Source: an uncultured virus (IMG/VR IMGVR_UViG_2061766007_000135)
Lineage: Duplodnaviria > Heunggongvirae > Uroviricota > Caudoviricetes
IMG/VR virus record: IMGVR_UViG_2061766007_000135
Reading direction: 5' to 3' (one strand)
DNA length: 50,340 nucleotides
Position 1 is the stretch's first letter; every line of letters starts with the position of its first letter. Of the stretch, positions 25,603 through 50,340 are shown piece by piece. The position numbers and the translations under genes are program-made. The notes below the pieces were generated by a model, which was given only the letters and a program-made list of their open reading frames with translations, had not been told where the DNA came from and did no database searches.

Positions 25603-25870
25603 NNNNNNNNNNNNNNNNNNNNNNNNNNNNNNNNNNNNNNNNNNNNNNNNNNNNNNNNNNNNNNNNNNNNNNNNNNNNNNNNNNNNNNNNNNNNNNNNNN
25701 NNNNNNNNNNNNNNNNNNNNNNNNNNNNNNNNNNNNNNNNNNNNNNNNNNNNNNNNNNNNNNNNNNNNNNNNNNNNNNNNNNNNNNNNNNNNNNNNNNNN
25801 NNNNNNNNNNNNNNNNNNNNNNNNNNNNNNNNNNNNNNNNNNNNNNNNNNNNNNNNNNNNNNNNNNNNNN
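25603..25870. other. Scaffold gap that should contain the C-terminal half of the major capsid gene
   Basis: Run of N; capsid ORF enters it at ...KIVMDGIE. Confidence 0.9.
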
Positions 25871-28409: not shown

Positions 28410-28419
28410 NNNNNNNNNN

Positions 28420-29117: not shown

Positions 29118-29127
29118 NNNNNNNNNN

Positions 29128-35749: not shown

Positions 35750-35947
35750 ATGAAATTAGAAAAAGTTGAATTTACCTGTCCACGATGCGGGACTAAATGG
35801 ACTGAGTTACAAGATCCACATGACGACTGGTTTAGACTTGCGACAAATCGGACCTTATGTGCCAAATGCGGCAAGGCCGTAATCAAACGCATTAAAGGAG
35901 AGTGGGATAATGAAGATTTATCTAGCTGGCCCCGTAGTCACGGATGA
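35750..35947 (+). CDS. Small zinc-ribbon protein
   Basis: CPRC...CAKC; GAAAGGGA RBS. Confidence 0.6.
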   Translation: MKLEKVEFTCPRCGTKWTELQDPHDDWFRLATNRTLCAKCGKAVIKRIKGEWDNEDLSSWPRSHG

Positions 35948-36452
35948 TGCAGTTATAAAGCAGCAAATGGCGGAACTTGAAGAGACTATTGAGCGTATGC
36001 GGTTGCCGGCAATCAATCCTGGTGAATGTAATATGCGCGATGATTATGTCGAACTGTATAGACCGGGCAAACATAAAGTGCCGAATGCTTGGGGCATTGA
36101 TATGCGCACTTGGGGTCAGTGTGTTTTTACTATGGATGTGGTAGCTATTGATGAATGCGAGTGGATGGTACTTGCTGATTATGGCAGGTCGGCCACAGCT
36201 GGCACTTCTTGGGAAGCGGGCTATGCTTTTGCCAAGGGAGTAAAAATTCTAGTCGTACAGATGCCAGGAGTTGAGGAATCGTCCCTGATGACGCAGGGGT
36301 GCGCCGCAAATATTTGTAAATATGAAGATTTTATTGCGGGCATTGACTGTGATGAAAAAGATTGGAAAGTATGGGATGAAATTTACGACCATAAATTTGA
36401 ACGATTTTTTTATGAAAGAGGACGTAAACCGCAAGGAGTGGTGTTGAATTGA
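35910..36452 (+). CDS. Nucleoside 2'-deoxyribosyltransferase / nucleotide N-glycosidase family protein
   Basis: KIYLAGP, D..AIDEC, GTSWEAGYAFAKG family motifs; AAGGAG RBS. Confidence 0.8.
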   Translation: MKIYLAGPVVTDDAVIKQQMAELEETIERMRLPAINPGECNMRDDYVELYRPGKHKVPNAWGIDMRTWGQCVFTMDVVAIDECEWMVLADYGRSATAGTSWEAGYAFAKGVKILVVQMPGVEESSLMTQGCAANICKYEDFIAGIDCDEKDWKVWDEIYDHKFERFFYERGRKPQGVVLN

Positions 36453-36676
36453 CACATTGTGGAGATTGTGTATATGGGTTAATTTATGGCAATTGCGGCA
36501 TGAGCCCTGGTAATGCGGCTTGTTTGTATAGATTCAAGCGGTGGTGGGAAGAAGAGCCGCAAAAAGTTATTGATTATCTTGAGCGTATTAAGCAACATGA
36601 ACAAGAAGCATATACTTGGAGAATGGCAGAAATTGAAATAATGATAGAGACTGTGAGGAATTATCATCATGGGTAA
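36449..36676 (+). CDS. Hypothetical Cys-rich protein
   Basis: CGDC..C..C; overlaps both neighbours. Confidence 0.55.
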   Translation: MTHCGDCVYGLIYGNCGMSPGNAACLYRFKRWWEEEPQKVIDYLERIKQHEQEAYTWRMAEIEIMIETVRNYHHG

Positions 36677-36863
36677 GATTATTGGAATTATTATTCTGGT
36701 TGGTTTGGTAATCTTTTTGGGGCCGTGGGTTGTTATGACCGGTTGGAATATGATTGCGGCGGGGATGTTCGCGCTGCCGACAATGACGTATTGGTCCGCC
36801 TTCTTTGGCACATGGGCGTTGTATATAATTTTGGGACATTTTCAAGCCAAGTCAGGAGATTAA
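36669..36863 (+). CDS. Small membrane protein
   Basis: Two hydrophobic segments; GAGG RBS. Confidence 0.65.
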   Translation: MGKIIGIIILVGLVIFLGPWVVMTGWNMIAAGMFALPTMTYWSAFFGTWALYIILGHFQAKSGD

Positions 36864-36865
36864 TT

Positions 36866-37657
36866 ATGGGTTTGAAATGGAATGAAATGATTGGTAATGT
36901 TTATGGAGATATGTAGGTATTACGACGAGCAACTCAAGCTGAAACTCCTTGGCATAGTCATGAAACACCATTGTGGGTAAAATGTCAGCAATGTGGACAA
37001 GAATGGATTGGCCGCAAAGGTGATATTGAAAAGAAAAAACCTTGCCCTTATTGTCATAAAATTGGTGGACGTGGTCATTATAATAAAGAATTATTAGGAA
37101 AACGATTTGGGTATTTGACTATTAAAGCTTATGATAAAGAATCAACTGCTTCACATAGTGGTGATACTTATTGGATTTGTCAATGTGATTGTGGCAATGT
37201 GATTTCTGTTAGATTAGACCATCTATTGGGACGTTATAGACACTCGCCAACTATTTCATGTGGTTGTGCTACTCGTAGTTCTGGAGAAATTAACACTCAA
37301 TATGCTTTAAAAGATTTAGGATTAGATTATAAAATTGAAACTATTGTGCCGGAATGCCATCAATGGTCGCCTTTTGATATTGAAGTTATCGATCAAAATG
37401 GGGAACGAGTATGTTTTTTTGAATGCGATGGCGAACAGCATTTTAAATTTGTCCCTCAATTTCATACTTCTGAAATGGATTTGATTCATCAGCAAGAAAT
37501 AGATAATATTAAAACACTTTGGTGTAAAGAAAATCATGTGCCGTTATTTAGAATTCCATATACGGATTATACTAGTGTAAATGCGGAGTACCTTATCACT
37601 CGTTTTCCCGAATTCAAAAAACTCTTAGAAAGTTTAGAGTCCAGACAAAACCAATAA
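36866..37657 (+). CDS. Homing-endonuclease-like protein (CxC DNA-binding modules plus PD-(D/E)xK nuclease), 263 aa; TAG at codon 17
   Basis: ATG after AGGAG; MIGNVYGDM(Q)VL parallels the internal LLGKRFGYLTI..WICQCDCGN module; SCGC..SSGE, PFD, ECDGEQHF, D.IK..WC...LFRIPY; AT-rich. Confidence 0.75.
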
Positions 37658-37961
37658 GTCGATTTAAAAAAATTTTTTGCCCGAATGTTACCCGGGGTGA
37701 TTTTGTACTGAAGAAAAAGTGTAAGGGTAGTCTGCCCTAGCAGAAACGCACGCCGGGCCGCCTGCGATCAAGGCGGCCCGATTTTGCGCCCAAACTTCTA
37801 ATGCAAAAATATTTAATACAAATGTCATACAAATTTTACAGATCATTCCAGCCCGAAAGTTCAGCACCTAGTTAACAAAAACTTTACACAAAAACGTATT
37901 GACTTCCTGGCAGACCTATGCTATAATGTAGTCACAAGGTTGAGAGAGGGAGGCCACAAAG

Positions 37962-38363
37962 ATGACTTACTACTGGGACATGGACGGCGTGCTGGCAGAC
38001 TTCCACAAGGCGGCTAATGGTAATTGGTCGAAAGCTCTGCGCTATGACTTCATCGTGAATCTGCCGGCTTTTGAAGAGAATGTCAAAACCCTTAATGAGA
38101 TGATCGCCGCTGGCATTACCTGCTACATTCTGACCAAAGCCGCCAATGCGGACGCGCGCCGCGGCAAGATCGACTGGCTGAAGAAGTATGTTCCTGCGAT
38201 GGATGAAGAGCACTTCATCTGCCTGTACAAAGGTCGCAAGGTGGACAGCATGAAGGAAGAAGGAACGCTCATTGATGACGATCTGACCAACATCAAGCAA
38301 TGGCGCAAAGCTGGTTACACTGCAATCTATCTTGAGACTAAAGGTGAAGCGATTCACCTTTAA
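37962..38363 (+). CDS. HAD-family 5'(3')-deoxyribonucleotidase-like protein, paralog 1
   Basis: WDMDGVLADF, ILT, K.DWLKKY, LIDD..NI..W. Confidence 0.85.
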   Translation: MTYYWDMDGVLADFHKAANGNWSKALRYDFIVNLPAFEENVKTLNEMIAAGITCYILTKAANADARRGKIDWLKKYVPAMDEEHFICLYKGRKVDSMKEEGTLIDDDLTNIKQWRKAGYTAIYLETKGEAIHL

Positions 38364-38591
38364 TCTCAAGCAATAGTAAAGCATACCAGACACAACATAA
38401 TAAACAAAGAAGGGTTGCTTTATGCGAATCACTGTTTAGCAAGAAACAACTAATAACCTAACACTTTTAATATCCTATACAATCAATCTGTATACGTAAG
38501 TTTGAATAACACGTAATAAGTTCTTAACTTGACAGTCCGACGTATCTATGCTATAATGTCTACAGAAACAAGAGAGAGAGGTAAGTAAAAG

Positions 38592-38927
38592 ATGATCAGC
38601 AAGAAGATGGCGGCAATCCTGATGGTGATTATGGTGCTAACTGGTATGGTCCTGGGCGTGCCGTTGGGCAAGCAGTGGATGAGAGAGCACACAACCGTGA
38701 CAGACACTTATCCGCGTATGGGCATCGTAACAGTGGTTGATCACGACAATGATCTAATCACCATCACCGACAGCGTTGGCTTTGACTGGCTGTGGGAAGG
38801 TGCAGAAGATTGGTGCGAAGGTGATCTTGCAAGTATGATAATGGACACCAACGGCACCGACAGCATCACTGATGACATTATCGTGGACATCAGTTACAGT
38901 GGATGGCTTCAGGACGCGAAGTCCTGA
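38592..38927 (+). CDS. Membrane-anchored hypothetical protein
   Basis: N-terminal hydrophobic helix, acidic beta-rich domain; own promoter and RBS. Confidence 0.7.
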   Translation: MISKKMAAILMVIMVLTGMVLGVPLGKQWMREHTTVTDTYPRMGIVTVVDHDNDLITITDSVGFDWLWEGAEDWCEGDLASMIMDTNGTDSITDDIIVDISYSGWLQDAKS

Positions 38928-39154
38928 AGCCTTATCTCACGCAGGCGCGCGCACGGGCGTGTGCGCGCCTAATTCGCACCTATGTATAGTCACACATAAT
39001 TATACGAGCAATCGTCCAGGGTATGCGGCACGTGCGCGCTCCCGATAGTATGCCATACACTATTGACAGGCCCACAAAAAAAGTTGTGCAGACCTCTTGA
39101 CAATAAGCGGATTATGTGCTATACTATAGTCACAAAGAAGGGAGGCAATACTGA

Positions 39155-39601
39155 ATGACTAAAGCAATCTGGTTCGACATGGATGGTACTATCGCTGATC
39201 TGTATGCCGTAGAAGGATGGCTTGCTTACCTCCAGGCAGAAGATACCACTCCTTATGAGCAGGCGAAGGTTATGCACAACATGGCCCAGCTTGCAAAGCT
39301 CCTGCACAGTGTACAGCGCAAAGGTTATACAATAGGTATCATCAGCTGGACGAGCAAGCGTGGCACGCCAGAGTATAATGAGCGTGTGGCAGAGGTAAAG
39401 AGGGCGTGGCTTGACAAGCATCTGCACAGTGTTGTATGGGACGCCATCAATGTAGTAGAGTATGGTACTAACAAGTACAGCGTGTGCAAGGGTGGCATCC
39501 TCTTCGACGATGAGCAAGGCAACAGAGACGCTTGGCAGGATGAAGCACACGAGCCAAAAGACATCATCAAAATCTTGAAAAAAATTATCAAAGAGGCTTG
39601 A
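39155..39601 (+). CDS. HAD-family nucleotidase-like protein, paralog 2
   Basis: FDMDGTIADLY, IISW, KRAWL, ILFDD. Confidence 0.85.
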   Translation: MTKAIWFDMDGTIADLYAVEGWLAYLQAEDTTPYEQAKVMHNMAQLAKLLHSVQRKGYTIGIISWTSKRGTPEYNERVAEVKRAWLDKHLHSVVWDAINVVEYGTNKYSVCKGGILFDDEQGNRDAWQDEAHEPKDIIKILKKIIKEA

Positions 39602-39656
39602 CAACTCAAGCCTCTTGTGCTATAATAGAACCATCAAGAGAGAGGAGTTGACCACG

Positions 39657-39854
39657 ATGCTGTATGAACTGACACTGAACTATGATAATGGTGCGACGAA
39701 AAAAGAGATCGCTGACCTGCCGACACTGATGCACTGTCTGAGTTATTACATGGACGAAGAGCCATGGCACACCATCGACATTATGAACTGCCAGACAGGC
39801 GAAGTCATCGCTATGTGGGAACAGAATGATGACTATGGGGTCACAGTACGATAA
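39657..39854 (+). CDS. Hypothetical protein, 65 aa
   Basis: ATG after GAGGAG; own promoter; followed by a terminator. Confidence 0.7.
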   Translation: MLYELTLNYDNGATKKEIADLPTLMHCLSYYMDEEPWHTIDIMNCQTGEVIAMWEQNDDYGVTVR

Positions 39855-40079
39855 TCCAATGAAGGTTGACCGAAAGGCCAGCCTTTTACTTTTCGCTCGG
39901 CCGCGCGCGGGTGTGCGCGGCCGAGTTTACGCAAGACAATAAGCCCAAGAAAAACAAAATGAAAAAACGCCCTGGCGAACCGGAGTTTTTGATCCCGAAA
40001 TGACTTAACCAATTCTTAACTTGACTTCCTGGCTGATCAGTGGTATACTTAAACCAGAAAAAGGAAAGGGGACAGAACA

Positions 40080-40427
40080 ATGATTAACTTGACTACTTGC
40101 AAAATCTCGTATCACTTTCAGAATGATCGGCAAGAGCGCAAGGCCAAAATCGACAAAATCATCAATAACAATCTGGGGCAAGTGGTTATTGAAGAGTGGT
40201 ACCGCGATGCGTGGCGTTGCCTGACTGATACTGGATTGATTATCATTGTATCCGCAAAGCAAGATTTCATCCTGACTTATTACTTTGCTACAATGAAGAA
40301 AGCTAAAGCAATGTATCACGATGCTTTCAAGACTATGCCGCAAGCCGTAGCAAATAAGATCATCAAAAATGCTAACACCTATTCCGCAATCTATCACGCC
40401 AGCATCAGCGAACGAGACCACGATTAA
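40080..40427 (+). CDS. Hypothetical protein, 115 aa
   Basis: Own promoter and RBS. Confidence 0.75.
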   Translation: MINLTTCKISYHFQNDRQERKAKIDKIINNNLGQVVIEEWYRDAWRCLTDTGLIIIVSAKQDFILTYYFATMKKAKAMYHDAFKTMPQAVANKIIKNANTYSAIYHASISERDHD

Positions 40428-40511
40428 CCAACAGTTAACACAAAAAAGTATTGACAAACCGAACGTCCTATGATATAATAAGTACAACGAAATGAGAGAG
40501 AGGTAATCAAA

Positions 40512-40757
40512 ATGAAGAAGATTCTGGCTGAAGGTTCCCGCAATGTGCTGTTCGTCTGCCGCAACTGCTCCACCACTTACATGGCCGATCTGAGACTGAA
40601 GGGCGATTGGAGCGATGGTGATGCTTGGCGCTCCAGGTCCGGCAAGACCGCGTTCTGCAACTGCCCGCTGTGTGCCACCGAGAACCGCACCGTGCTTGCC
40701 ACCGCGACGGCTTACACCGCCTATGGCGAACTGCTCAATGCCCCTCAGCCTCGCTGA
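40512..40757 (+). CDS. Zinc-ribbon protein, 81 aa
   Basis: CRNC...CPLC; own promoter; terminator CCCCTCAGC/GCTGAGGGG-TTTTT overlaps the stop. Confidence 0.75.
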   Translation: MKKILAEGSRNVLFVCRNCSTTYMADLRLKGDWSDGDAWRSRSGKTAFCNCPLCATENRTVLATATAYTAYGELLNAPQPR

Positions 40758-40936
40758 GGGGTTTTTCATCGGGCCGCGCGCCATCGGTCCTGGCGCGCGG
40801 TTTTTGGGCTGATTGAAGGTCCTGGAGGTTTTTATAGGCAAATGCGCGAATGTTAAGATTTGATAAAGTTCCCGATACCCCTTGACATCCTGGCGCGGCA
40901 GATGTATAATAGTATCAGAAAGTGAGGCGAAAGCAA

Positions 40937-41143
40937 ATGCTTATGAACACTCTGTTAGGCAAGACTTTGGCAATCTGGATGCTGACTGGACACTTTTTCG
41001 CTGGCTGTGTTTTCCTTCTCGTTGGTCTTATCAACTACCACTGGCCGCGCATCAAGTATCGCATTCTCCGGTGGGCGGGCTGGAAGCCGGTTACAATAGT
41101 AGAGAAAACCCCATTCACGCCGACTGGCAAGTACCGCATTTAA
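40937..41143 (+). CDS. Small membrane protein, 68 aa
   Basis: Hydrophobic segment; GTGAGG RBS; own promoter. Confidence 0.65.
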   Translation: MLMNTLLGKTLAIWMLTGHFFAGCVFLLVGLINYHWPRIKYRILRWAGWKPVTIVEKTPFTPTGKYRI

Positions 41144-41216
41144 CCAACGCTTAACTTGACAAAACCCCTTTCACCTGCTATAATAGACTTATCAACAAGA
41201 GAGGAAAGTGATAAGA

Positions 41217-41399
41217 ATGAAAGAAAATAAGACTTCTGCTGGCATCGGTTTCAATGGCCTTCTGGCTCTGCTGTTTATCGGTCTCAAACTGTGTGGCGTG
41301 ATCTCCTGGTCCTGGCTGTGGGTGCTGTCGCCCCTCTGGATCCCTCTGGCTCTGGCTGTTGTGATCTGCCTGTTCATCCTGATTGCCAACCATTTTTAA
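41217..41399 (+). CDS. Small phage membrane protein (GIGF.GLL..LFI.LKL.GVI.WSW.WVL.PLW family)
   Basis: Characteristic motif of a widespread phage two-helix protein family; own promoter. Confidence 0.8.
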   Translation: MKENKTSAGIGFNGLLALLFIGLKLCGVISWSWLWVLSPLWIPLALAVVICLFILIANHF

Positions 41400-41477
41400 C
41401 AAACGCTTTACCTGCGGAGGGGTTGACAAAACCCCTCCAGGGTGCTACAATAGAACCATCGAAAGGAGCTGATTTGA

Positions 41478-41945
41478 ATGAATAAAGAAATCATTAAGGC
41501 TATGCAGGGCAAGAAGGAACACAAGATGCGCAAGTGGTGGCGCCAGAATGGTTACAAAGTTTGGCGTGTGGTACTGTTCCCGCTGTGGATTGGTGAGCTT
41601 CTGAAAAACAAGATTGACAAGCGTCTGAACAGCAAAGAGGAATGGAATGAGGAACGCGCTAATGAGATTCTCAGCTATTACATTCCGCGCCGCGCTGAAT
41701 GGGACGAAAAAGAACAGTGCTTCTACCTTTTCGACAATGGTATGGGCTGGGGCATCGCCTACGCTAAGAAGTTTCTCAAGAGGAAGGATCGCCGCTTCTG
41801 GCAAGTAAACGGCAGCTGGTGGGGCGGTCAAATGCGAATCTTCCTCATTGAAAAGTTTGAACTGGAAGGATTCACAAAAGAAGTCGGCGTTTGTGATGAC
41901 GGATGGACAGAAGTTACTTTCAATCTTAACAAAAAAGGAGCTTGA
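41478..41945 (+). CDS. Hypothetical Trp/basic-rich protein, 155 aa
   Basis: GAAAGGAG RBS, own promoter. Confidence 0.75.
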   Translation: MNKEIIKAMQGKKEHKMRKWWRQNGYKVWRVVLFPLWIGELLKNKIDKRLNSKEEWNEERANEILSYYIPRRAEWDEKEQCFYLFDNGMGWGIAYAKKFLKRKDRRFWQVNGSWWGGQMRIFLIEKFELEGFTKEVGVCDDGWTEVTFNLNKKGA

Positions 41946-41949
41946 TCTT

Positions 41950-42162
41950 ATGACCAAATCTAACACCTTCCCTAAGTCCTTCAACTACACTAACTCACTG
42001 GGTTGCCCCAAAAAGCTGGTGGTGAACGCACCTAACGAAGCGGGCAAGTATTTCGTAACTCTGTGGGAAATGCTCCACGGCGAGTTTTGCGGGAGCGGCG
42101 AAATGACCCGCGAAGAACTGAACAGCTACCTTGAACACTTCGGCATCAGCGGCGGGGTTTGA
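41950..42162 (+). CDS. Hypothetical protein, 70 aa
   Basis: ATG after AAGGAG; true start is downstream of the track start 41848. Confidence 0.7.
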   Translation: MTKSNTFPKSFNYTNSLGCPKKLVVNAPNEAGKYFVTLWEMLHGEFCGSGEMTREELNSYLEHFGISGGV

Positions 42163-42319
42163 TCCCTGCCGCTTTCGTCTGCGCGCCGACGGCCCTGGCG
42201 CGCAGAGTTTGCGATATGATAGGAGCTTCAGATTTTTCAATGTAAAAAGTTGGTAAACTGCCTTGACTTTGTGCGCCCGATATGGTATACTATACCCAGA
42301 TCAAGAGAGAGAGGTGCTT

Positions 42320-42913
42320 ATGATGAAGTCCAGTTACGAAGCTCGCGCGCTTAAGTTCGCCTACACCCTGGTTGCTCTGTTCGCCGATTGTCTGACCTAT
42401 CAGGATTTCCGCGCCGTGATTATGGAATACAATAGGCATCACAGCCGTCAGCTCAATTACTCCTGCGGCGTGTCGCGTATGGTTATCATTCGGGCCGATT
42501 ATGTCATCAAGTTCGACATGGTGCCCGAAGGAATGTTCTCCAATGGTTGTGCTGGTAACAATGCCACCGAAGCAGAAGTCTATGCGCGCAGTGTGGTTGA
42601 TGGTTATGAGTATCTGCTTGCTAAACCTACTTGCATTAACATCAATGGCCGCGATATTACCATTATGCCGCGCATCAGTCACGTGAATGATGAAAGCCGC
42701 TATTATGTCAACTATTGCACAGATGATGAGTATGATTGGCTTTGTGAGAATATCAATGACCTGCATGAAGGTAATCTCGGCTATCGCAATGGTAAGGTCT
42801 GTGTGATCGACTATGCGTGGGATGCCACTTCTGAGAATCAAGACTATGCAAGTCTGACAATGCCCACAAGCGCAAAAGAGCCAGAGCTCTGTTTGAAGTT
42901 CCCCAGTCTCTAA
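42320..42913 (+). CDS. Protein-kinase-like fold protein, 197 aa
   Basis: GVSRMV (Gly loop), YVIKF (catalytic Lys), E..VY (helix C), IMPR hinge, DLHEGN catalytic loop, VIDY Mg-binding. Confidence 0.7.
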   Translation: MMKSSYEARALKFAYTLVALFADCLTYQDFRAVIMEYNRHHSRQLNYSCGVSRMVIIRADYVIKFDMVPEGMFSNGCAGNNATEAEVYARSVVDGYEYLLAKPTCININGRDITIMPRISHVNDESRYYVNYCTDDEYDWLCENINDLHEGNLGYRNGKVCVIDYAWDATSENQDYASLTMPTSAKEPELCLKFPSL

Positions 42914-43119
42914 ACCTCAAGATGCCTAAAAGGCATCTTTTTTGTATGTTNNNNNNNNNNCATAATTATGCAGATCAAATGTATAGTTATGCGCCTGGAC
43001 CTGGCGGCCCGAAACCTGGCACTTTACCAACTCTTAACTTGCAATTTGGCTCCACCTGTGCTATAATAAATACGAACTTGAGGGAAGGACACCCGCCAAA
43101 CCAGAAAGGGATTGATAGT

Positions 43120-43818
43120 ATGACTACCACCAACAAAGCAATCGTTATCGACACCGAGACCTGCAACATCATCAAGAGCGACAAAGTCCAGCCCGGCAAC
43201 AACCTGACCTATGATATTGGCTATTCTAAGATTGAGCCGTCCACCGGCCGAGTGCTTGAGCGCCATTCCTACGTCGTGCGGGAAATCTTCTTCGGCGAAC
43301 GTGAGCGGATGGACAGCGCCTACTATGCGAACAAGCTGCCCCAGTATTATGATGATATTGCATCCGGCAAGCGGATTGTGAAATCCTTCTTTGAAGTGAT
43401 GAACGAAATCAACGAACAGTGCCACAATGACAATGTGATCGCTGTTATCGCTCACAATGCGCGCTTTGATGTGGATGCGCTGAACACCACCGCGCGCTGG
43501 CTGACTGGTCTGGATTATGTGACCGCCCTTCCGCGTGATGTGGAAATTTGGGACAGTATGCAGATGTGGAACGCGGTCAAGCCTGCTAAGTATTCCGCTT
43601 TTTGTGAAGAAAACGGATACAAGACGAACCACAAGCCGCCGCGGGATCGCCTGACCGCTGAAATTATTTACCGCTTCCTATCTGGTGAAATTGACTTTGA
43701 AGAAAGCCACACCGCGCTGGAAGATGTGGAAATCGAAAGTCAGATCGTTTTCGCCTGCTATCGAACCCACAAGCCGCTGAAAGAAGCGCGCGTCCTGTAT
43801 CACGCCAGAAAAGCGTGA
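43120..43818 (+). CDS. DEDDh (DnaQ-like) 3'-5' exonuclease, paralog 1, 232 aa
   Basis: VIDTET, AHNARFD, HTALED; own promoter and RBS. Confidence 0.85.
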   Translation: MTTTNKAIVIDTETCNIIKSDKVQPGNNLTYDIGYSKIEPSTGRVLERHSYVVREIFFGERERMDSAYYANKLPQYYDDIASGKRIVKSFFEVMNEINEQCHNDNVIAVIAHNARFDVDALNTTARWLTGLDYVTALPRDVEIWDSMQMWNAVKPAKYSAFCEENGYKTNHKPPRDRLTAEIIYRFLSGEIDFEESHTALEDVEIESQIVFACYRTHKPLKEARVLYHARKA

Positions 43819-43897
43819 TACAGGACATCACCGAAACTTAACTTGACTTCTGGCGCGATTGATGCTATAATTACTTACGTTGAAAGGGGTTGAGTAA

Positions 43898-44278
43898 ATG
43901 AATCAGATCGAAAAGCTGATGAAGAATCTGGGCATCACGCGCGAAGAAGCGGAACAGATGATGCGCGACGATGAAGCAATCGACAAAGGCGCAAAGCTGT
44001 TTGAACAGACAGCGGAACAGAAAGCCGCCGCGAAAGCCGCTTGCAAAGGGATGGCAAGAGCCGTCAATGCCTACGGTAAAGAAGTCAAGCGAGAGCGCAA
44101 ACCCAACGACTTGAAACGCTGGATCATCGCGCGCGTGAAAGTCCTCTGTGAGGGCTGGGAACTGAACGGCGATGCGCTTAACGTTGCGGTAACAAATCCT
44201 GAGCGCACGATTGACTTTGAGATCGATGGCCACAGCTTCACCTTGACACTGACCGAACACCGCAAACCGAAATCTTAA
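43898..44278 (+). CDS. Hypothetical protein, VNAYGKEVKR family paralog 1
   Basis: Clear similarity to 47909-48316. Confidence 0.8.
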   Translation: MNQIEKLMKNLGITREEAEQMMRDDEAIDKGAKLFEQTAEQKAAAKAACKGMARAVNAYGKEVKRERKPNDLKRWIIARVKVLCEGWELNGDALNVAVTNPERTIDFEIDGHSFTLTLTEHRKPKS

Positions 44279-44360
44279 CTTGACAATCCTGACCGACTGT
44301 GATACAATAAGTACATCAAAGGGCAAGGAAAAGCCCTAAAAACCAGAAAGGATTGATATT

Positions 44361-44708
44361 ATGACTAATAAGATGACCTACGTTGACGCCCTGAACATCG
44401 CCATCGAAACCCTGACCGACGCTGATGTGATCGAAAAGCTGACCGCCCTGCGTGACCAGACCGCGAAGCGCAACAGCACCGAGAACCGCAAGCCCACTAA
44501 GACCCAGCAGGAGAACGCGGAACTCCAGAAGGTGGTTCTCGCCGCCCTGACCCGCGAACCCTGCACCATCTCCGAGCTAATGACCCGCGACGCTCGCCTG
44601 AGCGCCCTGAGCAACCAGAAGGTCGCCGCGCTGACCAACGCTCTGGTCAAGAGTGGGGACGCGCTGAAGATTCCCGACGGTCGCAAGATGACCTTCGCCC
44701 TCGCGTGA
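44361..44708 (+). CDS. Winged-helix-like DNA-binding protein, paralog 1
   Basis: KRNST..KPTK.Q.EN, then TISEL...SNQKVAAL...LVK.G..K wHTH pattern. Confidence 0.7.
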   Translation: MTNKMTYVDALNIAIETLTDADVIEKLTALRDQTAKRNSTENRKPTKTQQENAELQKVVLAALTREPCTISELMTRDARLSALSNQKVAALTNALVKSGDALKIPDGRKMTFALA

Positions 44709-44897
44709 GGGCAATCCCCAGGCCCCAGCCCTCGCGGCTGGGGCTTCATTTGCCGGGCCGACCGCTGCTGGGCGCAGCGGTCGGAATTTGCGATGTATAC
44801 AGGTCTGCATAAATTTACATTCAAAAAGATCAAAAAAAGGGGTTGACAATCACTCCCGAATGTGGTACAATGTTATCAGAAAGTGAGGGACGAACCA

Positions 44898-45074
44898 ATG
44901 AAACGAGCCTTTTTCAAGAGAGTGGACAACCTGGCCGCCTGGGATTTAGACGCCGGATGCCGTCGCATTGTGGATCAATCCACCCCGGCTAATCGCCGCC
45001 TAAAAAAGCGTTTGCGCAAGATGGCCAGAAAGCAACTTAACAAAGAGTTTACAAACGAACCTATTGACAATTAG
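44898..45074 (+). CDS. Small basic protein, 58 aa (ends at TAG)
   Basis: GTGAGG RBS, own promoter; NRRLKKRLRKMARK. Confidence 0.65.
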   Translation: MKRAFFKRVDNLAAWDLDAGCRRIVDQSTPANRRLKKRLRKMARKQLNKEFTNEPIDN

Positions 45075-45119
45075 TCGGATGTATGCTATAATGAGTACAA
45101 CGAAAGGGGTTGAAAGAGA

Positions 45120-45566
45120 ATGAAGAAAGAAATCTGGTTCGATATGGATGGCACTATTGCTGACCTGTACGCGGTGGAAAACTGGCTGGAGTATCTGATC
45201 AATGAGGACACCTACCCTTACGCGCACGCGAAAGTGATGTTGAACTTCTCCCTGCTGGCGCGGTTGCTGAATCGCCTTCAGGATGAGGGCTGGAAGATCG
45301 GGATCATCAGCTGGACTAGCAAGAAGGGGTCGGAAGCCTACAACAGCGCGGTGGAAATGGTCAAGCGCGCGTGGCTGGCCCAGCACCTGCCCAGTGTTGA
45401 ATGGGACGAAATCCGCGTGGTACGCTATGGTACTAACAAGTATGAAACTTGCGGCGGTGGCATCTTGTTTGATGATGAGATCGGGAACCGCGAGAGCTGG
45501 AAAGATGAAGCGCACGAACCGACTGAAATTCTTGATACTCTGAAAGGGCTTCTGATGGGGAAGTAA
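45120..45566 (+). CDS. HAD-family nucleotidase-like protein, paralog 3 (close to paralog 2)
   Basis: IWFDMDGTIADLYAVE.WL.YL, IGIISWTSK, YGTNKY, GGILFDDE shared with 39155-39601. Confidence 0.85.
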   Translation: MKKEIWFDMDGTIADLYAVENWLEYLINEDTYPYAHAKVMLNFSLLARLLNRLQDEGWKIGIISWTSKKGSEAYNSAVEMVKRAWLAQHLPSVEWDEIRVVRYGTNKYETCGGGILFDDEIGNRESWKDEAHEPTEILDTLKGLLMGK

Positions 45567-45604
45567 ATCCCCATCAAGCCCACCAATAGAAAGGATGATA
45601 AATA

Positions 45605-45739
45605 ATGTCTATGAATACTCACATCGGTAAAGCGTTGGCTATTGGTATCTTTGCGGGACATCCTGTAATGGGTTGGTTGTGGGTTGGCGTGGCTTTTGTT
45701 GACTTAACCATCAAACACTGGAAAGCAAGAAAGGGCTAA
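45605..45739 (+). CDS. Small membrane peptide, 44 aa
   Basis: AAGGATGA RBS; MSMNTHIGKALAIGIFAGHPVMGWLWVGVAFVDLTIKHWKARKG. Confidence 0.55.
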   Translation: MSMNTHIGKALAIGIFAGHPVMGWLWVGVAFVDLTIKHWKARKG

Positions 45740-45743
45740 TAGT

Positions 45744-45992
45744 ATGAAGATACAAAAAGATGATTTGTATGATAATGGCTCACTAATCACCCGACAGATA
45801 AAAGAATTTGATGTTGAAATACAAGCATTGACCAACAGAGTTGAAAGAATGCGCAACTTACAACATTTGATCATTAATGGAGTGCGCGAAGGGCTCATTG
45901 TTGACACTAACACCGTGGATTTGGCAATGAGTTGGTTAAATCATTCTCAACTGTCTGCGGATGAAATAATGCAAAAGCTGGACATTTACTAA
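45744..45992 (+). CDS. Hypothetical coiled-coil protein, 82 aa
   Basis: RBS; followed by a terminator-like T-run and a GC hairpin. Confidence 0.65.
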   Translation: MKIQKDDLYDNGSLITRQIKEFDVEIQALTNRVERMRNLQHLIINGVREGLIVDTNTVDLAMSWLNHSQLSADEIMQKLDIY

Positions 45993-46291
45993 TGTCTGGC
46001 TTTTTGCGTTGGCGGCGCGTGCTCGGGCGGCACGCGCCGAGTTCGCGATAGGAGGAAGTGCACAAAAAAATAGATCAAACTTTGGGCATTTTACCGACTT
46101 GCATTTTTCTCCTGGAAGTAGTATACTATAATCGTTCCGAGGGGGAGAGTGAGACGCCGGCCTGGCGGCCTGGCTACCGAGGAAGACGGCTTAACCAAGA
46201 GTTAACTTGACAGCCGTCCACAAATGTGATACAATTAAGACATCAAAGGGGAGCTGCTAAACCCCACAAACAGAGAAAGAGAGTGATTAGT

Positions 46292-46639
46292 ATGACTAAT
46301 TCCTACACCTACATCAACGCCATCGACGAAGCCCTGTCCTGTGAGCTGTCCGACCAGTGCCGCGAGAAGCTGTCCGCGCTCCGCACCCAGATCGAGAAGC
46401 GCAACTCCACCCACAGCGACAAGCCGACCAAGAAGCAGGCCGAGAACGCCGAAGTGAAGGACATCATCCTGTCCAAGCTGTCCTCGACCGAGGGCAAGCG
46501 GTGCGGTGACATCGCCACCGAAGTCGGCATCAGTGGCCAGAAGTGCTCCGCCCTGCTGAGCCAGCTGGTCAAGACCGGCGAAGTCCTCAAGACCGAAGAG
46601 AAGCGGGTCGCTCTCTTCACCCTCCCTGTGGGCGGCTAA
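46292..46639 (+). CDS. Winged-helix-like DNA-binding protein, paralog 2
   Basis: QIEKRNST..KPTKKQ.EN..CGDIATEVGISGQKCSALLSQLVKTG. Confidence 0.75.
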   Translation: MTNSYTYINAIDEALSCELSDQCREKLSALRTQIEKRNSTHSDKPTKKQAENAEVKDIILSKLSSTEGKRCGDIATEVGISGQKCSALLSQLVKTGEVLKTEEKRVALFTLPVGG

Positions 46640-46652
46640 TGCCGCCCCTTAT

Positions 46653-46738
46653 GGGGATGAGGACGGTCGGGTAACTGTCACGGTGCCAGTCGCCAGGGGC
46701 AAGGCCCCAAGCGGGTTCGACTCCCGCCATCTCCACCA
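46653..46738 (+). ncRNA. Non-canonical tRNA-like RNA with tmRNA/tRNA-Ala-type acceptor stem, 86 nt
   Basis: GGGGATG/CATCTCC acceptor with G3-U70, A73 and encoded CCA; perfect T-arm GCGGG-TTCGACT-CCCGC; 6-bp D-like stem; 5-bp variable arm; degenerate anticodon arm; terminator follows. Confidence 0.75.
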
Positions 46739-46762
46739 GCCCCTTCGGGGGCTTTTCTTTTT
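46739..46762 (+). terminator. Intrinsic terminator after the tRNA-like RNA
   Basis: GCCCC-TTCG-GGGGC-TTTTCTTTTT. Confidence 0.85.
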
Positions 46763-46903
46763 GACCGCGCGTCTGCGGCCCAGACGCACGGTTTTGTGCA
46801 TCCTGGATACCTCTGCATATTTATCCGCAAAAATGTATGAATATTCTTGTTGACAAATGCTCCCGAATGTGCTATACTATCACTGTTGAAAGGGGTTGAG
46901 GTT

Positions 46904-47062
46904 ATGAAGTCTCTTATGCTGGGTCTGGGTTGTCTTCTGCTGATGGTTTCTTTCCTGTGTATGGTTGGCCTGGTGCTTGCTCCCTGTACTGGTTTCACGG
47001 TGGGCTGTGTGTCCACTATGTGCGGAGCCTGCGGCATTGTTAAATTCTTGGAAACCCATTGA
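46904..47062 (+). CDS. Small hydrophobic Cys-rich membrane peptide, 52 aa
   Basis: Own promoter, RBS; stop overlaps the next -35. Confidence 0.6.
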   Translation: MKSLMLGLGCLLLMVSFLCMVGLVLAPCTGFTVGCVSTMCGACGIVKFLETH

Positions 47063-47120
47063 CATCTTGTCTAGTCTATGGTATACTAATTCCATCAAAT
47101 AAAGAAAGAGGTTGATTTGA

Positions 47121-47831
47121 ATGCCTGCCACCACTATCATTACCCTTGCTATGCTTCTTGAACAGATCGCGCAGATCGCGTATGACCATCGCGGCGAAAA
47201 GCTCATCTGTATCGACACAGAAACCGCTTTTAACATGCCGTGGCAACGTTTCTATGACTTCGGGCTTGCTGTCATCAATAGGGCTGGAAAGATTTTTTTC
47301 AAGCTGTCGCTTGTCAATTCTTCCATCTTCTATGGTAGAGCGGACGCAATGCAATCTTGCTACTATGCTAACAAGTTGCCGCAGTACTATGTTGAAATAG
47401 AAGATGGAACGCGCATTGTTCTTACTTCTAAAGAAATCAAGATACTGTTCGCCGCAATTTGTGAACACTTCAACATCAAGAAAGTTTGCGCTTACAACAT
47501 TGCTTTTGATTATCGCGCTTGCAATAACACTTTGCGAAACTTCTTCCCTACTGATACTGAATATTGGGACATTATGAAGATGGCAAAAGATGTTTTCGGC
47601 ACGATGAAGTCTTATCACAGTTTTTGTGAAGATAATGGTTTTATGACCAAACACAAAAAGCCGCGCCACCAGCTGAAAGCCGAAACTGTTTATCGGTTCA
47701 TAACTAAAGATCCTGAGTTTGTCGAAGCGCACACCGGCTTGCGTGACGTAGAGATCGAAACGATTATCCTTGCAGAATGTTTCAAGCGGCATAAGAAAAT
47801 GACGCGAGTGTGGGAACCGAAGAGGGCTTAA
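47121..47831 (+). CDS. DEDDh 3'-5' exonuclease, paralog 2
   Basis: IDTET, AYNIAFD, HTGLRDVEIE; shares YYANKLPQYY and FCE.NG with paralog 1. Confidence 0.85.
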   Translation: MPATTIITLAMLLEQIAQIAYDHRGEKLICIDTETAFNMPWQRFYDFGLAVINRAGKIFFKLSLVNSSIFYGRADAMQSCYYANKLPQYYVEIEDGTRIVLTSKEIKILFAAICEHFNIKKVCAYNIAFDYRACNNTLRNFFPTDTEYWDIMKMAKDVFGTMKSYHSFCEDNGFMTKHKKPRHQLKAETVYRFITKDPEFVEAHTGLRDVEIETIILAECFKRHKKMTRVWEPKRA

Positions 47832-47908
47832 CGCCCTCTTCACATTCGGGCTATTGACAAAAGAAAAAAAATGTGATAAAATATTTTTAGAAAGTGAGGG
47901 ATGAGCAA

Positions 47909-48316
47909 ATGACTAAAGAGCAATTTATCGAACAGTGGCTTGACAAGTATGAGCAGGCCCACCCCGATGAGCGTCTGGACTATGACGCCCTGCGGGAGCA
48001 AGCCGACTGCGAGTGGTACGACAAAGAGGTGGACCGCGGCAACGCTACGGAGTACGATCTGAGCGCCGAGCAGCAGAAGGCCGTCAAGGCCGCTATGCAG
48101 GGGATGGCCCACCGGAGTGTCAACGCCTACGGGAAAGAGGTCAAGCGCGTGCGGAAGCCGAACGAGGCCAAGCGCGAACTGGTGCAGGCCATTGCGGACG
48201 CTCTCGCCGCCTACGGCGCGGACATCTCCAACCCCGAGCGGCAGGTCGATTTCACCTGGCAGGGCATCGCCTACAGTGTGACCCTGACGGCTCACCGCCC
48301 GCCCAAAGCCAAGTAA
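47909..48316 (+). CDS. Hypothetical protein, VNAYGKEVKR family paralog 2
   Basis: EQ.KA.KAA..GMA..VNAYGKEVKR.RKPN..KR, NPER..DF, LT.HR.PK shared with 43898-44278. Confidence 0.8.
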   Translation: MTKEQFIEQWLDKYEQAHPDERLDYDALREQADCEWYDKEVDRGNATEYDLSAEQQKAVKAAMQGMAHRSVNAYGKEVKRVRKPNEAKRELVQAIADALAAYGADISNPERQVDFTWQGIAYSVTLTAHRPPKAK

Positions 48317-48792
48317 GGCTCCGGCCCCCGCCGGGGCCTTTTCTTTTCGGCCGGCCGCTGCTGGGCGCAGCGGCCGGTTTTTACGCCTGGAGGGACCACC
48401 TGGAATTTTGCGCGCAAAAGGCCAATGTAAAGCGTGGGTTAAATCAGCCCGGAACCCCTTGACAGATCGGGCCGCAGGGTGTATAATGTGTTCGTAAGGT
48501 TGAGGGAGGGCAGGGCCCCACGGGGCCGGCTCGGACAGACGAAACAAACTCTTAACTTGACAATCCGGCTGATCAGTAGTATAATGGACACATCAAAAGG
48601 GGATGATACCGATGGTTTGAGATGGGGCGACACCCGACAGGCGCTTGCCCGCGCCGCGTCCACCTGGCGGGTAGCTCAGTAAGGCAAAAGGACGCTTAAC
48701 CAACACTTAACTTGACAAACCCAACCGACTATGCTATAATGAGTACATCAAAAGGGGAAGGAAAACCCCACAAACCAGAAAGGGTTGATATT

Positions 48793-49143
48793 ATGACCAC
48801 TAAAATCACTTACGCTGACGCTCTGAACACTGTCCTGACCACCTACGAACTGCCTGCCGAAGTCGCTGAGAAGCTGATCGCTCTGAAAGAGCAGATCGAA
48901 AAGCGCAACTCTACGGAGCGCAAGCCCACCAAAGTCCAGCAGGCCAATGTGGCTCTCCGTGAGAAGGTGCTGGCGGTGCTGACCACTGAGCCGGTCACTG
49001 TGTCCGAGTTGATGGCCCGCGATCCCGAGCTGGCGGCCCTGTCCAATCAGAAGGTGGCGGCTCTGGTGAACGCCCTCGTGAAGGACGGTCAGGCCCTCAA
49101 GCTGCCGGATGGCCGCAAGATGACCTTCTGCCTGCCGCGCTGA
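48793..49143 (+). CDS. Winged-helix-like DNA-binding protein, paralog 3 (close to paralog 1)
   Basis: LSNQKVAAL.NALVK.G.ALK.PDGRKMTF shared with 44361-44708. Confidence 0.75.
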   Translation: MTTKITYADALNTVLTTYELPAEVAEKLIALKEQIEKRNSTERKPTKVQQANVALREKVLAVLTTEPVTVSELMARDPELAALSNQKVAALVNALVKDGQALKLPDGRKMTFCLPR

Positions 49144-49438
49144 TGCGGCAACCCCTAGGGGAGGCGTAAGCCTCCCCCTTTTGGTGTCGCTCGGACGGGC
49201 CGGTCGCGGGCGATCCGGCCCGAGTTTCGCGATCGGTATGCATATGCAAATTTTTCGCTTGAAACTCCCATATGCGATCGGAATGCTTGAACTCCCGAAT
49301 ATATGCCTTATTTGGGCCGATCGGCAGACCGATTGGCTTCCAGCTCATTCGAGCGTCTCTTTGCGCTCTCTAAACAGAGCTACAACTCGCTGTAGCCCTA
49401 AAAAATACCATTTTGCACTACTTTCATCACAAAATGAT

Positions 49439-49653
49439 TGGATTTTATCAAAAAAATATGATAAAATATGTTTTGGGGACGATTTCTTTGCGATCGGGCA
49501 CTTGATTTCACCAAAAAAATATGATATAATAAAAGAAAAACCCCTAAGTGCCTATCGGGCACTTGATTTATATCAAAAAATATGATAAAATATTGTTGGG
49601 GGTTGTACAATTGCGATCGGATACTTGATTTTTATAAAAAATTTTGGTATAAT
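49439..49653 (+). promoter_or_regulatory. Four tandem promoter-containing repeats (61-63 bp period)
   Basis: T(T/G)GATT-17 (A-tract)-TA(T/A)AAT with -35 at 49439, 49502, 49563 and 49625; the last three are preceded by (G)C(G/T)ATCGG. Confidence 0.75.
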
Positions 49654-49717
49654 ATACATGTAAAAGATGAGAAAAGCCTTTTACGAAATACGTATTTAGT
49701 ATAAGGAGCGAAATTCG

Positions 49718-50185
49718 ATGGATCAGAAGACTATTCTGGACGCCCTGCAGAAGGCCCTGGCGAACGGTTCTGGCTCACTTGACGACCTCAATCAGTTGCT
49801 TGACCGAGCCAAGAGTGACATTGCACAGGCCAAGAGAGAAGAGGAAGAGGCTGCGCGCAAGGCTAAGGAAGCTGCCGAGCGTGCTAAGATCAAGAGAGGC
49901 GAAGATATTGCCGGCCTGGCTACTCGTTTGCTTGCCGAACAGCCAACTGCTGAAGACGTTGCAATGATGCTGACCGCATTTCTCAAGACTAAGGGCTTTG
50001 AGACCGGTGTTACTGCCGAGGAAGTTGAGGACTGTTTCGCCTCTAGTGTTAAGCTGCACTCTGAACTGGATCAGCTTATGAACGCAGTTAAGGACTTGGG
50101 CGATATATTCAACACTAAGCCTAAGAAGGAACGCGAAAGTGATGACATTCTCGACCAGTTCTTGCGTCAGAGAGGCTTGCGGTAA
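49718..50185 (+). CDS. Hypothetical coiled-coil protein, 155 aa
   Basis: TAAGGAG RBS; intact ORF; terminator follows. Confidence 0.8.
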   Translation: MDQKTILDALQKALANGSGSLDDLNQLLDRAKSDIAQAKREEEEAARKAKEAAERAKIKRGEDIAGLATRLLAEQPTAEDVAMMLTAFLKTKGFETGVTAEEVEDCFASSVKLHSELDQLMNAVKDLGDIFNTKPKKERESDDILDQFLRQRGLR

Positions 50186-50192
50186 AGAAAAT

Positions 50193-50215
50193 AGAGCCGC
50201 AAGGCTCTTTTTTTT
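50193..50215 (+). terminator. Intrinsic terminator
   Basis: AGAGCC-GCAA-GGCTCT followed by a T-run. Confidence 0.85.
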
Positions 50216-50340
50216 ATATATTAAAGGAAAACGATAACGGAATCGGTAACGAGTAAATATATATAGATGTCTAGCACCGATCGGCACCACCACACCTCTG
50301 TCACCTGCAATTTTTGTATAAAATCTTATAAATTATTAAA

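Follow-up and report, generated by a model that had tools for sequence, protein, structure and literature searches.

GC-rich hairpins at cassette boundaries in the early region of an uncultured TAG-recoded gut phage: candidate insulators within shuffled regulatory linkers

Why do short GC-rich hairpins, variable in sequence but constant in pairing, recur between the small early genes of an uncultured virus of the Caudoviricetes? The question is raised by IMG/VR record IMGVR_UViG_2061766007_000135, analyzed here as one strand of 50,340 nucleotides (nt), called the window, in which ten such hairpins (named H2 below) are located between positions 37754 and 49223. A sequence-only reading of the window had described them as structure-conserved elements delimiting gene cassettes, and had suggested structure-specific sites for recombinational cassette shuffling, resembling integron attC sites or repetitive extragenic palindromes (REP). 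The analysis reported here indicates that the hairpins indeed mark cassette boundaries, and that exchange occurs at the hairpins and at every other short motif that the linkers between the cassettes have in common. The reading given an even chance is that H2 is the stem-loop part of repeated regulatory linkers, acting as a second stop or insulator, and that the cassettes are joined by general recombination at these common motifs.

The ten hairpins previously placed in 37754-49232 were all recovered by direct reading and by folding of each site. They are 27-29 nt long, with stems of 10-12 base pairs (bp), loops of 4-7 nt and RNA folding energies of -17.4 to -26.5 kcal/mol. A scan of 37600-49400 for hairpins with at least 10 pairs, at least 8 of them G-C, and at most one mismatch yielded 13 hairpins, some of which are separate terminators. 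This is far above dinucleotide-preserving shuffles (n = 100), where the count averaged 0.09 and never exceeded 1; the same scan found no hairpin in the 35.6 kb late region. All H2 are on the plus strand. H2 #1 (37754..37781) has a 10-bp stem and a 7-nt loop and was matched by the covariance model described below with 36.4 bits. H2 #2 (38943..38970) has a 12-bp stem with one G-T pair and the loop GGGC, and H2 #3 (39897..39925) and H2 #7 (46013..46039) were identified by folding and by a model match. H2 #4 (40774..40800) is followed directly 3' of the stem by five T residues and belongs to repeat family D12, together with #1, #5 (42179..42205) and #8 (46764..46792); #8 contains one C-A mismatch. 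H2 #9 (48351..48377) has the core of #6 (44758..44784), and H2 #10 (49196..49223) has an 8-bp outer stem with weaker inner pairing. The two pairs of close copies, #6/#9 and #4/#5, each differ by a compensatory double change (A-T to G-C from #6 to #9), in agreement with the claim that stem sequences differ while pairing is kept. The recurring 3' tail was also found as originally quoted. The G-rich motif said to be shared by the loops is present in the window, but over 99 unique members of the wider family G and C occur in the loops in a ratio of 237:206, which is not significant.

The search of related genomes with a covariance model, proposed together with the sequence-only reading, revealed a widespread family. 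Model R1 was based on an alignment of the ten window hairpins and 18 hairpins from relatives. Changes on both sides were seen at 10 of the 11 pairs of this alignment, although its pairing is partly by construction, because the sequences had been chosen as hairpins. In the window itself the model detected the same ten hairpins only. In the window and 13 viral loci together, all 75 matches (E<0.01) were on the gene strand, and so were all 128 matches in 41 metagenome loci, 29 of which had at least one match (L041, a duplicate of L011, was omitted from this set). Complete relatives of 130-200 kb contained 6, 6 and 7 matches, all inside 6.5-8.5 kb, which sets H2 apart as a peculiarity of the early region and not a general terminator type. 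Stem positions are Watson-Crick paired in 967 of 1025 cases (94%), the arms measure 10-11 bp in 73 of 99 unique members, and conservation is highest over the outer 7 bp of each arm. Swaps of G-C to C-G at paired positions keep complementarity but not sequence. The only end motifs in common are a loose GGGC and a tail in which TTT follows an A or a G. A target-site duplication around the hairpin was considered and rejected; both flanks read as a T run followed by CG, with no consistent alignment in the window, in locus L003 or in the L004 clade. Pairing of the 5' flank with the tail outside a 5-nt bulge, as an outer helix, amounts to 2-3 bp in some copies only and was attributed to chance.

In the distantly related phage phAss-1 (L056) one clear and one weak model match were found in 14 kb. 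The sister lineages L010 and L011 have the sequence CCCGGGC (or CCCGGGT) after a T-less hairpin at 24 and 23 places, respectively. The linker type of these lineages consists of the T-less hairpin, this motif, an A/T-rich stretch and a consensus promoter, and in one L011 copy (7313) the motif is the loop of an H2 hairpin.

H2 is embedded in linkers with a recurrent order of parts. As the sequence-only reading had noted, most of the hairpins lie just downstream of a separate terminator: in nine of the ten linkers H2 is placed 5-18 nt after a gene-end hairpin, here called T1, and only #1 has no canonical terminator just upstream. The T1 hairpins have a T tract in most cases and a stable tetraloop in several. 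They are located, all on the plus strand, before #2 (38905..38931, overlapping the stop codon and with a weak T tail), #3 (39861..39886, from the fold of the upstream stretch), #4 (40740..40762), #5 (42148..42173), #6 (44722..44744), #7 (45967..46011, overlapping the stop codon and also recognized by folding the upstream stretch), #8 (46738..46753), #9 (48315..48340) and #10 (49158..49177); those before #3 to #10 are terminators. The window terminators are not bidirectional. All T-tract terminators of the region are followed by an H2, with the single exception of a canonical terminator at 42919..42939 (plus strand) that adjoins a run of ten N (42951-42960). A relative contig has 65 nt between 42943 and 42962, and an eleventh hairpin may hide there.

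Downstream of H2, the recurring tail leads into an AT-rich spacer, and the next promoter follows, again as described earlier. The next scanned -35 hexamer is found 57 nt past #5 and #8, 58 nt past #6, and at 81, 81, 95, 117 and 126 nt for five others, while it is further away for #7 and #10. The sigma-70-type promoters closest to their hairpins are those at 42263..42291, 44843..44871 and 46850..46878 (plus strand; after #5, #6 and #8); the other linker promoters, from the promoter scan, are located on the plus strand at 37899, 39097, 40021, 40882 and 48459. Between 32000 and 50340, 68 promoter-like sites were counted versus 32.3 in shuffles, and 21 plus-strand sites have 11-12 of 12 hexamer matches. 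The linker promoters fall into repeat families D1-D8 with 4-8 copies each. A motif conserved across lineages is located in or near the spacer of early promoters: TCCCGAAT in the window (family D15; in the promoters after #6 and #8) and TCCCGAAAT or TCCTAAAAT in relatives (L003, L011 and L004 loci). A motif of type TTGTGCAA recurs between hairpin and promoter. Both kinds of motif may be regulator binding sites.

Junctions between related phages were read against these linkers. For the window's own hairpins the data are contigs of four other sequencing runs (X5-X8; cattle-gut and other), which are 85-99% like the window; these had to be used because a metagenome scan for closer relatives reached a protein identity of only 60-62% at best. 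The left end coincides exactly with the first stem base of a hairpin (37754; 42179 in two runs; 44758; 49196) in five of the 32 contig pieces that were listed, where by our arithmetic ~0.1 coincidences would be expected by chance (ten feet, 2-nt tolerance). An X7 contig starts exactly at 37754 (#1), X5 contigs start at 42179 (#5) and 44758 (#6), and an X5 contig has an end exactly at 49196 (#10). In addition, an X8 contig is unlike the window upstream of 44760, and an X7 contig ends at 42205, the last base of #5. In an X6 contig the unit 41411-42178, consisting of a promoter, two genes and a terminator, is replaced by a different, 35-nt terminator-like hairpin, and similarity resumes at 42179. 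Other junctions are found elsewhere in the linkers. Joints occur just before a start codon or at a ribosome-binding site (40509>41476, 41473>47909), inside promoter spacers (48562>46249, 48567>44300) and inside the terminator before #7 (45583>45984); the two backward joints in promoter spacers are also compatible with a different gene order.

The loci of relatives show the same preferences. In the L004 clade a 2.3 kb cassette was gained or lost with its junction in a conserved block beside the -35 hexamer; ends of homology in this clade cluster at ribosome-binding sites and start codons, and starts of homology cluster 6-41 nt before the hairpin. An internal left boundary of homology was seen in 679 linker pairs, and in 447 of these it lies 3-12 nt before the model-defined foot, the pairs not being independent and the L004 clade dominating them. 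When hairpin plus spacer were clustered, 10 of 56 clusters had more than one upstream cluster, while the reverse was found for 1 of 86. Both the contigs and these clusters indicate that H2 travels with the downstream promoter module and not with the upstream gene. For hairpins alone, 14 of 22 clusters had several upstream partners and 12 of 22 had several downstream partners. One hairpin (L031 3113) is a chimera, with the 5' arm of one type and the 3' foot and tail of another, and carries the resulting mismatch. The idea that the hairpins delimit gene cassettes, and that gene gain and loss map to them, is thus borne out by the contig junctions, by the homology boundaries of the linker pairs, and by the hairpin-plus-spacer clusters and the chimeric hairpin. 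The opposite outcome foreseen with that idea, namely backup terminators to which breakpoints are unrelated, does not describe these data, because the breakpoints are related to the hairpins.

No recombinase had been visible to the sequence-only reading, and none was found among the 37 open reading frames (ORFs) of the window that were scanned (21 early, 16 late). A tyrosine recombinase or HUH nuclease was also sought elsewhere, in the records of five relatives, four of which are rated 100% complete. Tyrosine recombinases (PF00589) were found in none of the five, nor was there any match to the Y1 HUH transposase family (PF01797) or to serine recombinases (PF00239) in them; the controls matched 14 of 14 genomes for PF00589 and 6 of 14 for PF01797, and the positive control for PF00239 responded. 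The enzymes that attC- or REP-type shuffling uses are thus missing from these relatives, H2 is too short and too well paired for such sites, and it is confined to one region of 6-12 kb. This part of the original proposal is not supported.

A role of H2 in termination or insulation, and the mechanism of recombination, are what we infer from these observations. In the proposed linker the GC hairpin H2 comes first of four parts and is followed by an AT-rich spacer, by a near-consensus host sigma-70 promoter and by a ribosome-binding site. Such linkers would separate small early genes of the host-takeover type, the upstream gene usually supplying its own canonical terminator T1. H2 would then act as a second, hairpin-dependent stop or insulator against read-through from very strong upstream promoters, and by this insulation each cassette could be expressed alone. 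The H2 feet, the promoter hexamers and the ribosome-binding sites would be the sole sequences common to otherwise unrelated cassettes, and general recombination would join the cassettes at these places because only those sequences are common. Only exchanges that spare the hairpin would survive, and mosaic junctions would therefore lie at its 5' foot. A stop function is suggested by the location and strand of H2, by the presence of at least 4 T in the 8 nt past the stem in 83 of 108 unique family members, and by the L004 clade, in which H2 bears the sole T-rich tail because the preceding hairpin is T-less and overlaps H2 by 4 nt. A complementary distribution of T tracts, in T1 or H2 but not in both, was looked for, and no correlation was seen (Spearman -0.06).

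Several findings weigh against H2 as an insulator. The tails in the window are T-poor, with 1-4 T in the 8 nt past the folded stem versus 2-7 for T1 (eight of ten T1 with at least 4), and only #8 and #9 of the ten window hairpins passed the terminator scan. A canonical terminator already precedes nine H2, and a second one is not obviously needed. Stable tetraloops, present in several T1, are absent from H2. Wobble pairs are fewer in H2, the ratio of G-T to A-C being 12:13 versus 42:10 in T1 (unique sequences, Fisher p=0.007); however, after de-replication the ratios (8:5 for H2, 30:9 for T1) no longer differ, which leaves a weak hint only. The three loci that come nearest to the window in the exonuclease-like protein (L001, L014, L015; 60-62% identity) have no H2 and carry a sequence-conserved AT-rich palindrome instead (TTGGATGT-N-TAACATCCAA type), located between terminator and -35, 8-10 nt before the latter, that looks like an operator. 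Finally, some relatives have a consensus promoter immediately next to the hairpin, an unusual arrangement for a plain terminator. Such a promoter is on the same strand, with its -10 about 3 nt from the foot, in L003 (14201), L027 (2260), L028 (3630) and phAss-1, and on the opposite strand in five L003 copies, L002 and L011; the latter motif is also present 3' of the hairpin in L021, L022, L023 and L026. An insulator or terminator is therefore put forward as the most likely reading of H2, and a structural role at the level of DNA as its main rival.

In that rival, for which a limited likelihood is granted, the palindrome would form a cruciform or a folded structure in single-stranded DNA. Its foot would be bound or cut by a phage protein such as a junction-resolving or HNH-type nuclease, which would directly start the exchange, and H2 would resemble attC or REP without their enzymes. 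It would account for junctions exactly at the 5' foot of four hairpins, for the chimeric hairpin and for hairpin types with several partners on either side. The high proportion of Watson-Crick pairs with few wobble pairs, the tight arm length and the loops that are not of RNA tetraloop type would also fit a DNA structure, as would a position upstream of strong promoters, where negative supercoiling may be expected; moreover, the gene of an HNH endonuclease (36971-37657) ends 97 nt before #1. Against these points stand the lack of a dedicated recombinase in the four complete relatives, the similar number of junctions in promoters and ribosome-binding sites, where no hairpin is needed, and the orientation of all model matches with transcription, which a symmetric cruciform would not require. 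Arms of 10-12 bp with G+C-rich centres extrude poorly, and the wobble difference from T1 was lost upon de-replication. A similar idea was floated for the T4-type cassettes discussed below, with reference to T4 deletion end points at a GGGC motif (PMC2839356). In a bolder and rather improbable version the foot of H2 is nicked or resolved by an unrecognized phage enzyme and promoter-gene-terminator cassettes are cut and pasted between phages, with GCCCGGGC and the AT-rich palindromes of sister lineages as alternative versions of the site. A wide group of gut phages would then possess an "integron without integrase". Plain tandem backup terminators without any part in recombination, with foot junctions that merely reflect a conserved hairpin after gene-specific sequence, are unlikely. 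Placement after genes and on the gene strand, the T-rich tails of most family members, the two window hairpins that passed the terminator scan and the L004 clade speak for them. However, confinement to 6-12 kb means that the other terminators of these genomes are of a different type, the window tails are T-poor, promoters adjoin the hairpin in several relatives, and the chimeric hairpin and two-sided re-association indicate exchange at and within the element.

The promoters abutting the hairpin would suit a function in RNA, either as a short antisense RNA comprising H2 and a bidirectional terminator or as a 5' protective hairpin on the sense transcript. This is hardly probable. Five L003 copies, L002 (6950) and L011 (6315) have a perfect minus-strand TTGACA-17-TG-TATAAT at a distance of 5-8 nt from the 3' foot, with A-/T-flanked bidirectional terminators beyond, and the corresponding sites in L021, L022, L023 and L026 and the plus-strand -10 elements about 3 nt from the 5' foot in L003 (14201), L027, L028 and phAss-1 point the same way. 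In the window, however, none of the ten copies has an adjoining minus-strand promoter in the scan and the terminators are not bidirectional; the layout is lineage-specific and therefore not the common function. Least probable are operators for the winged-helix paralogues of the region, with hairpin classes and regulators diversifying together. Three such paralogues (44361, 46292, 48793) each precede a hairpin of a different class, the outer 7 bp of the arms show the highest conservation, and the closest relatives carry their AT palindrome just before the -35 at the equivalent place. But the G-C/C-G swaps preserve complementarity rather than sequence, the hairpin centre lies ~70-140 nt before the -35 in the window, and seven hairpins come after other genes. 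A CRISPR array, a replication origin and a DNA-injection stop signal were also considered; none of them led to a prediction that the sequence supports.

The abutting promoters deserve mention in their own right. Minus-strand promoters reading into the hairpin (L003 6650-6700 and four more L003 sites; L002 6985; L011 6351) would yield a candidate antisense RNA of ~80 nt. Plus-strand sites with the -10 about 3 nt before the hairpin are located at L027 2230-2300, L028 3600-3670, L003 14170-14250 and, in phAss-1, L056 6830-6900. Transcription from such a plus-strand promoter would begin inside the 5' arm, and its products could avoid the hairpin, whereas read-through RNA would include it entirely.

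The closest known system is that of the promoter-early stem-loop (PeSL) cassettes, mobile regulatory cassettes of T4-type phages (Arbiol, Comeau et al. 2010, PMC2839356; Comeau et al. 2014, PMC4122927). The H2 linkers are best read as an analogue of these cassettes and not as a member. PeSL cassettes consist of a stem-loop, an AT-rich region and a sigma-70 promoter, and the stem-loop has been described as an effective terminator (PMC2839356). PeSL-related insertions and deletions as well as mini-circles were reported to arise via recombination between cassettes (PMC2839356; PMC4122927). The H2 linkers have the same order of parts, a G+C-rich stem-loop, an AT-rich region and a strong sigma-70-type early promoter. 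They also occur in many copies among small non-essential ORFs of one plastic region, and insertion, deletion and replacement junctions between related phages fall inside the cassettes, with no dedicated recombinase known. However, the phage is an unrelated, TAG-recoded, long-tailed one with a tape measure protein of 4548 amino acids (aa), and there is no sequence homology. H2 stems are variable with alternating G and C, whereas PeSL stems are polyG/polyC, a separate canonical terminator usually precedes H2, and junctions pile up at the 5' foot besides the promoter. Terminator activity and mini-circles are known for PeSL, whereas the H2 linkers are known here from sequence alone. The junctions in promoters and ribosome-binding sites match the homology-driven shuffling of PeSL cassettes (PMC2839356), and because of this the hairpins are not regarded as an undescribed kind of system, as had been proposed.

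Likeness to other elements is partial. H2 shares with intrinsic terminators a G+C-rich stem of 5-14 bp, a loop of 3-8 nt, a place on the transcribed strand after a gene and, in 83 of 108 family members, at least 4 T within the next 8 nt. In the window, however, only 2-5 T follow the stem directly, often with A or G first, and H2 is restricted to one genome region and inherited with a downstream promoter module. REP and the related bacterial interspersed mosaic elements (BIME) of enterobacteria and pseudomonads, associated with RAYT transposases, are short, G+C-rich, oriented extragenic palindromes after genes that occur by the hundreds genome-wide. H2 is likewise short, G+C-rich, oriented and placed after genes, with pairing kept while stem sequence varies. 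Unlike REP, it is limited to 6-7 copies per 130-200 kb genome, clustered in 6.5-8.5 kb; none of the four complete relatives was found to encode a Y1 HUH (RAYT-type) protein, and the 5' flank of H2 is a T-rich terminator tail with a loose GGGC instead of a conserved tetranucleotide. Integron attC sites are imperfect palindromes of 57-141 nt with conserved core sites and extrahelical bases, recognized by the tyrosine recombinase IntI. H2 resembles them as a structure-conserved, sequence-variable hairpin after gene cassettes; it differs in being 27-29 nt long and almost perfectly paired, without conserved core sites at its ends. Furthermore, the relatives have no tyrosine recombinase, H2 cassettes have their own promoters, and the junction is at the 5' foot rather than at the 3' end. 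Morons of lambdoid phages are promoter-gene-terminator units inserted singly between genes. The unit 41411-42178, missing in a relative, likewise starts with a promoter and ends with a terminator, but H2 units follow one another in an array, separated by a conserved linker that starts with the hairpin.

The T4-type solution for fast-changing accessory genes, in which repeated stem-loop and promoter linkers connect cassettes that carry all they need for expression, would thus also be found in unrelated, uncultured large TAG-recoded gut phages. H2 is a well-defined, structure-conserved 27-nt family that can be modelled and searched, and junctions can be read against it at single-base resolution. 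This makes the question raised for PeSL, whether the stem-loop is only a terminator or a recombination target too, testable. In annotation, H2 may be used as a marker of cassette boundaries in the early region of these phages.

The right part of the window is the early, host-takeover type region of a long-tailed TAG-recoded phage. In the standard code the left ~35.6 kb (1-35635) contains short broken frames, while reading TAG as glutamine gives long minus-strand genes, with 95 in-frame TAG codons in the 4548-aa tape measure protein and 32 in an open frame of 1746 aa. Products of this late region include, besides the tape measure protein, a portal, a terminase-like protein, virion proteins and a phage sigma factor. 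Its G+C content is ~33%, or 32-37% per 2-kb segment with a single exception of 41% at 26-28 kb, compared to 47-53% for the hairpin-bearing early region. The early region (35900-50340, plus strand) uses the standard code and has ~28 small genes in its hairpin-bearing part. Three HAD-type deoxynucleotidases, two exonuclease-like proteins, three winged-helix proteins and two further paralogues are encoded there, in scattered cassettes as had been stated, and the small ORFs mostly belong to no family. Runs of N are present at 25603-25870, 28410-28419, 29118-29127 and, as mentioned, 42951-42960.

DNA of the window is present in cattle-gut metagenome runs. Megablast of 37600-49400 against a phage collection gave no match, and searches of viral contigs for the exact sequences of #5 and #6 found none. 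The published TAG-recoded phage phAss-1 shares one protein with 33% identity, and its authors suggested Clostridia as hosts (PMC10607447), which for the window phage is only a weak lead. The words terminator, promoter and hairpin do not occur in the phAss-1 paper (PMC10607447). ARAGORN found no tRNA or transfer-messenger RNA (tmRNA) in the window, hence no suppressor tRNA there. Rfam at gathering thresholds gave no match in the window; a match to c4-a1b1 over #9 was dismissed as weak (E=0.018; 23.9 bits versus 46.7).

An 86-nt RNA gene, a mini-tmRNA with the tRNA-like domain only, is located at 46653-46738 (plus strand); it follows the stop codon of a winged-helix gene and precedes T1/H2 #8. 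Only its two ends match the Rfam tmRNA model, 47 nt standing where the model has 326; the match (E=7e-14) scores 41.6 bits, less than the gathering score of 47. The fold is a cloverleaf in which the acceptor stem measures 7 bp, the third pair is G-U and the end is CCA. The element is absent from one near-identical relative contig (joint 46639>46736), and a similar unannotated element is found in phAss-1 (L056 6645-6739). A tmRNA consisting of the tRNA-like domain only has been described in mycobacteriophage DS6A, where it is thought to inhibit trans-translation (PMC4131195).

Two further structures were noted around promoters of the early region. Just past #10, at 49425-49654 (plus strand), lie 4-5 tandem promoter-like units (TTGAT..-17-TATAAT type) with a period of 61-63 nt, belonging to family D3, each with a small hairpin in front. 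At 41412-41444 a hairpin of GGAGGGG..CCCCTCC encloses TTGACAAAA, its loop being the -35 hexamer of the promoter at 41423; this hairpin lies at the left end of the unit (41411-42178) that is missing in a relative.

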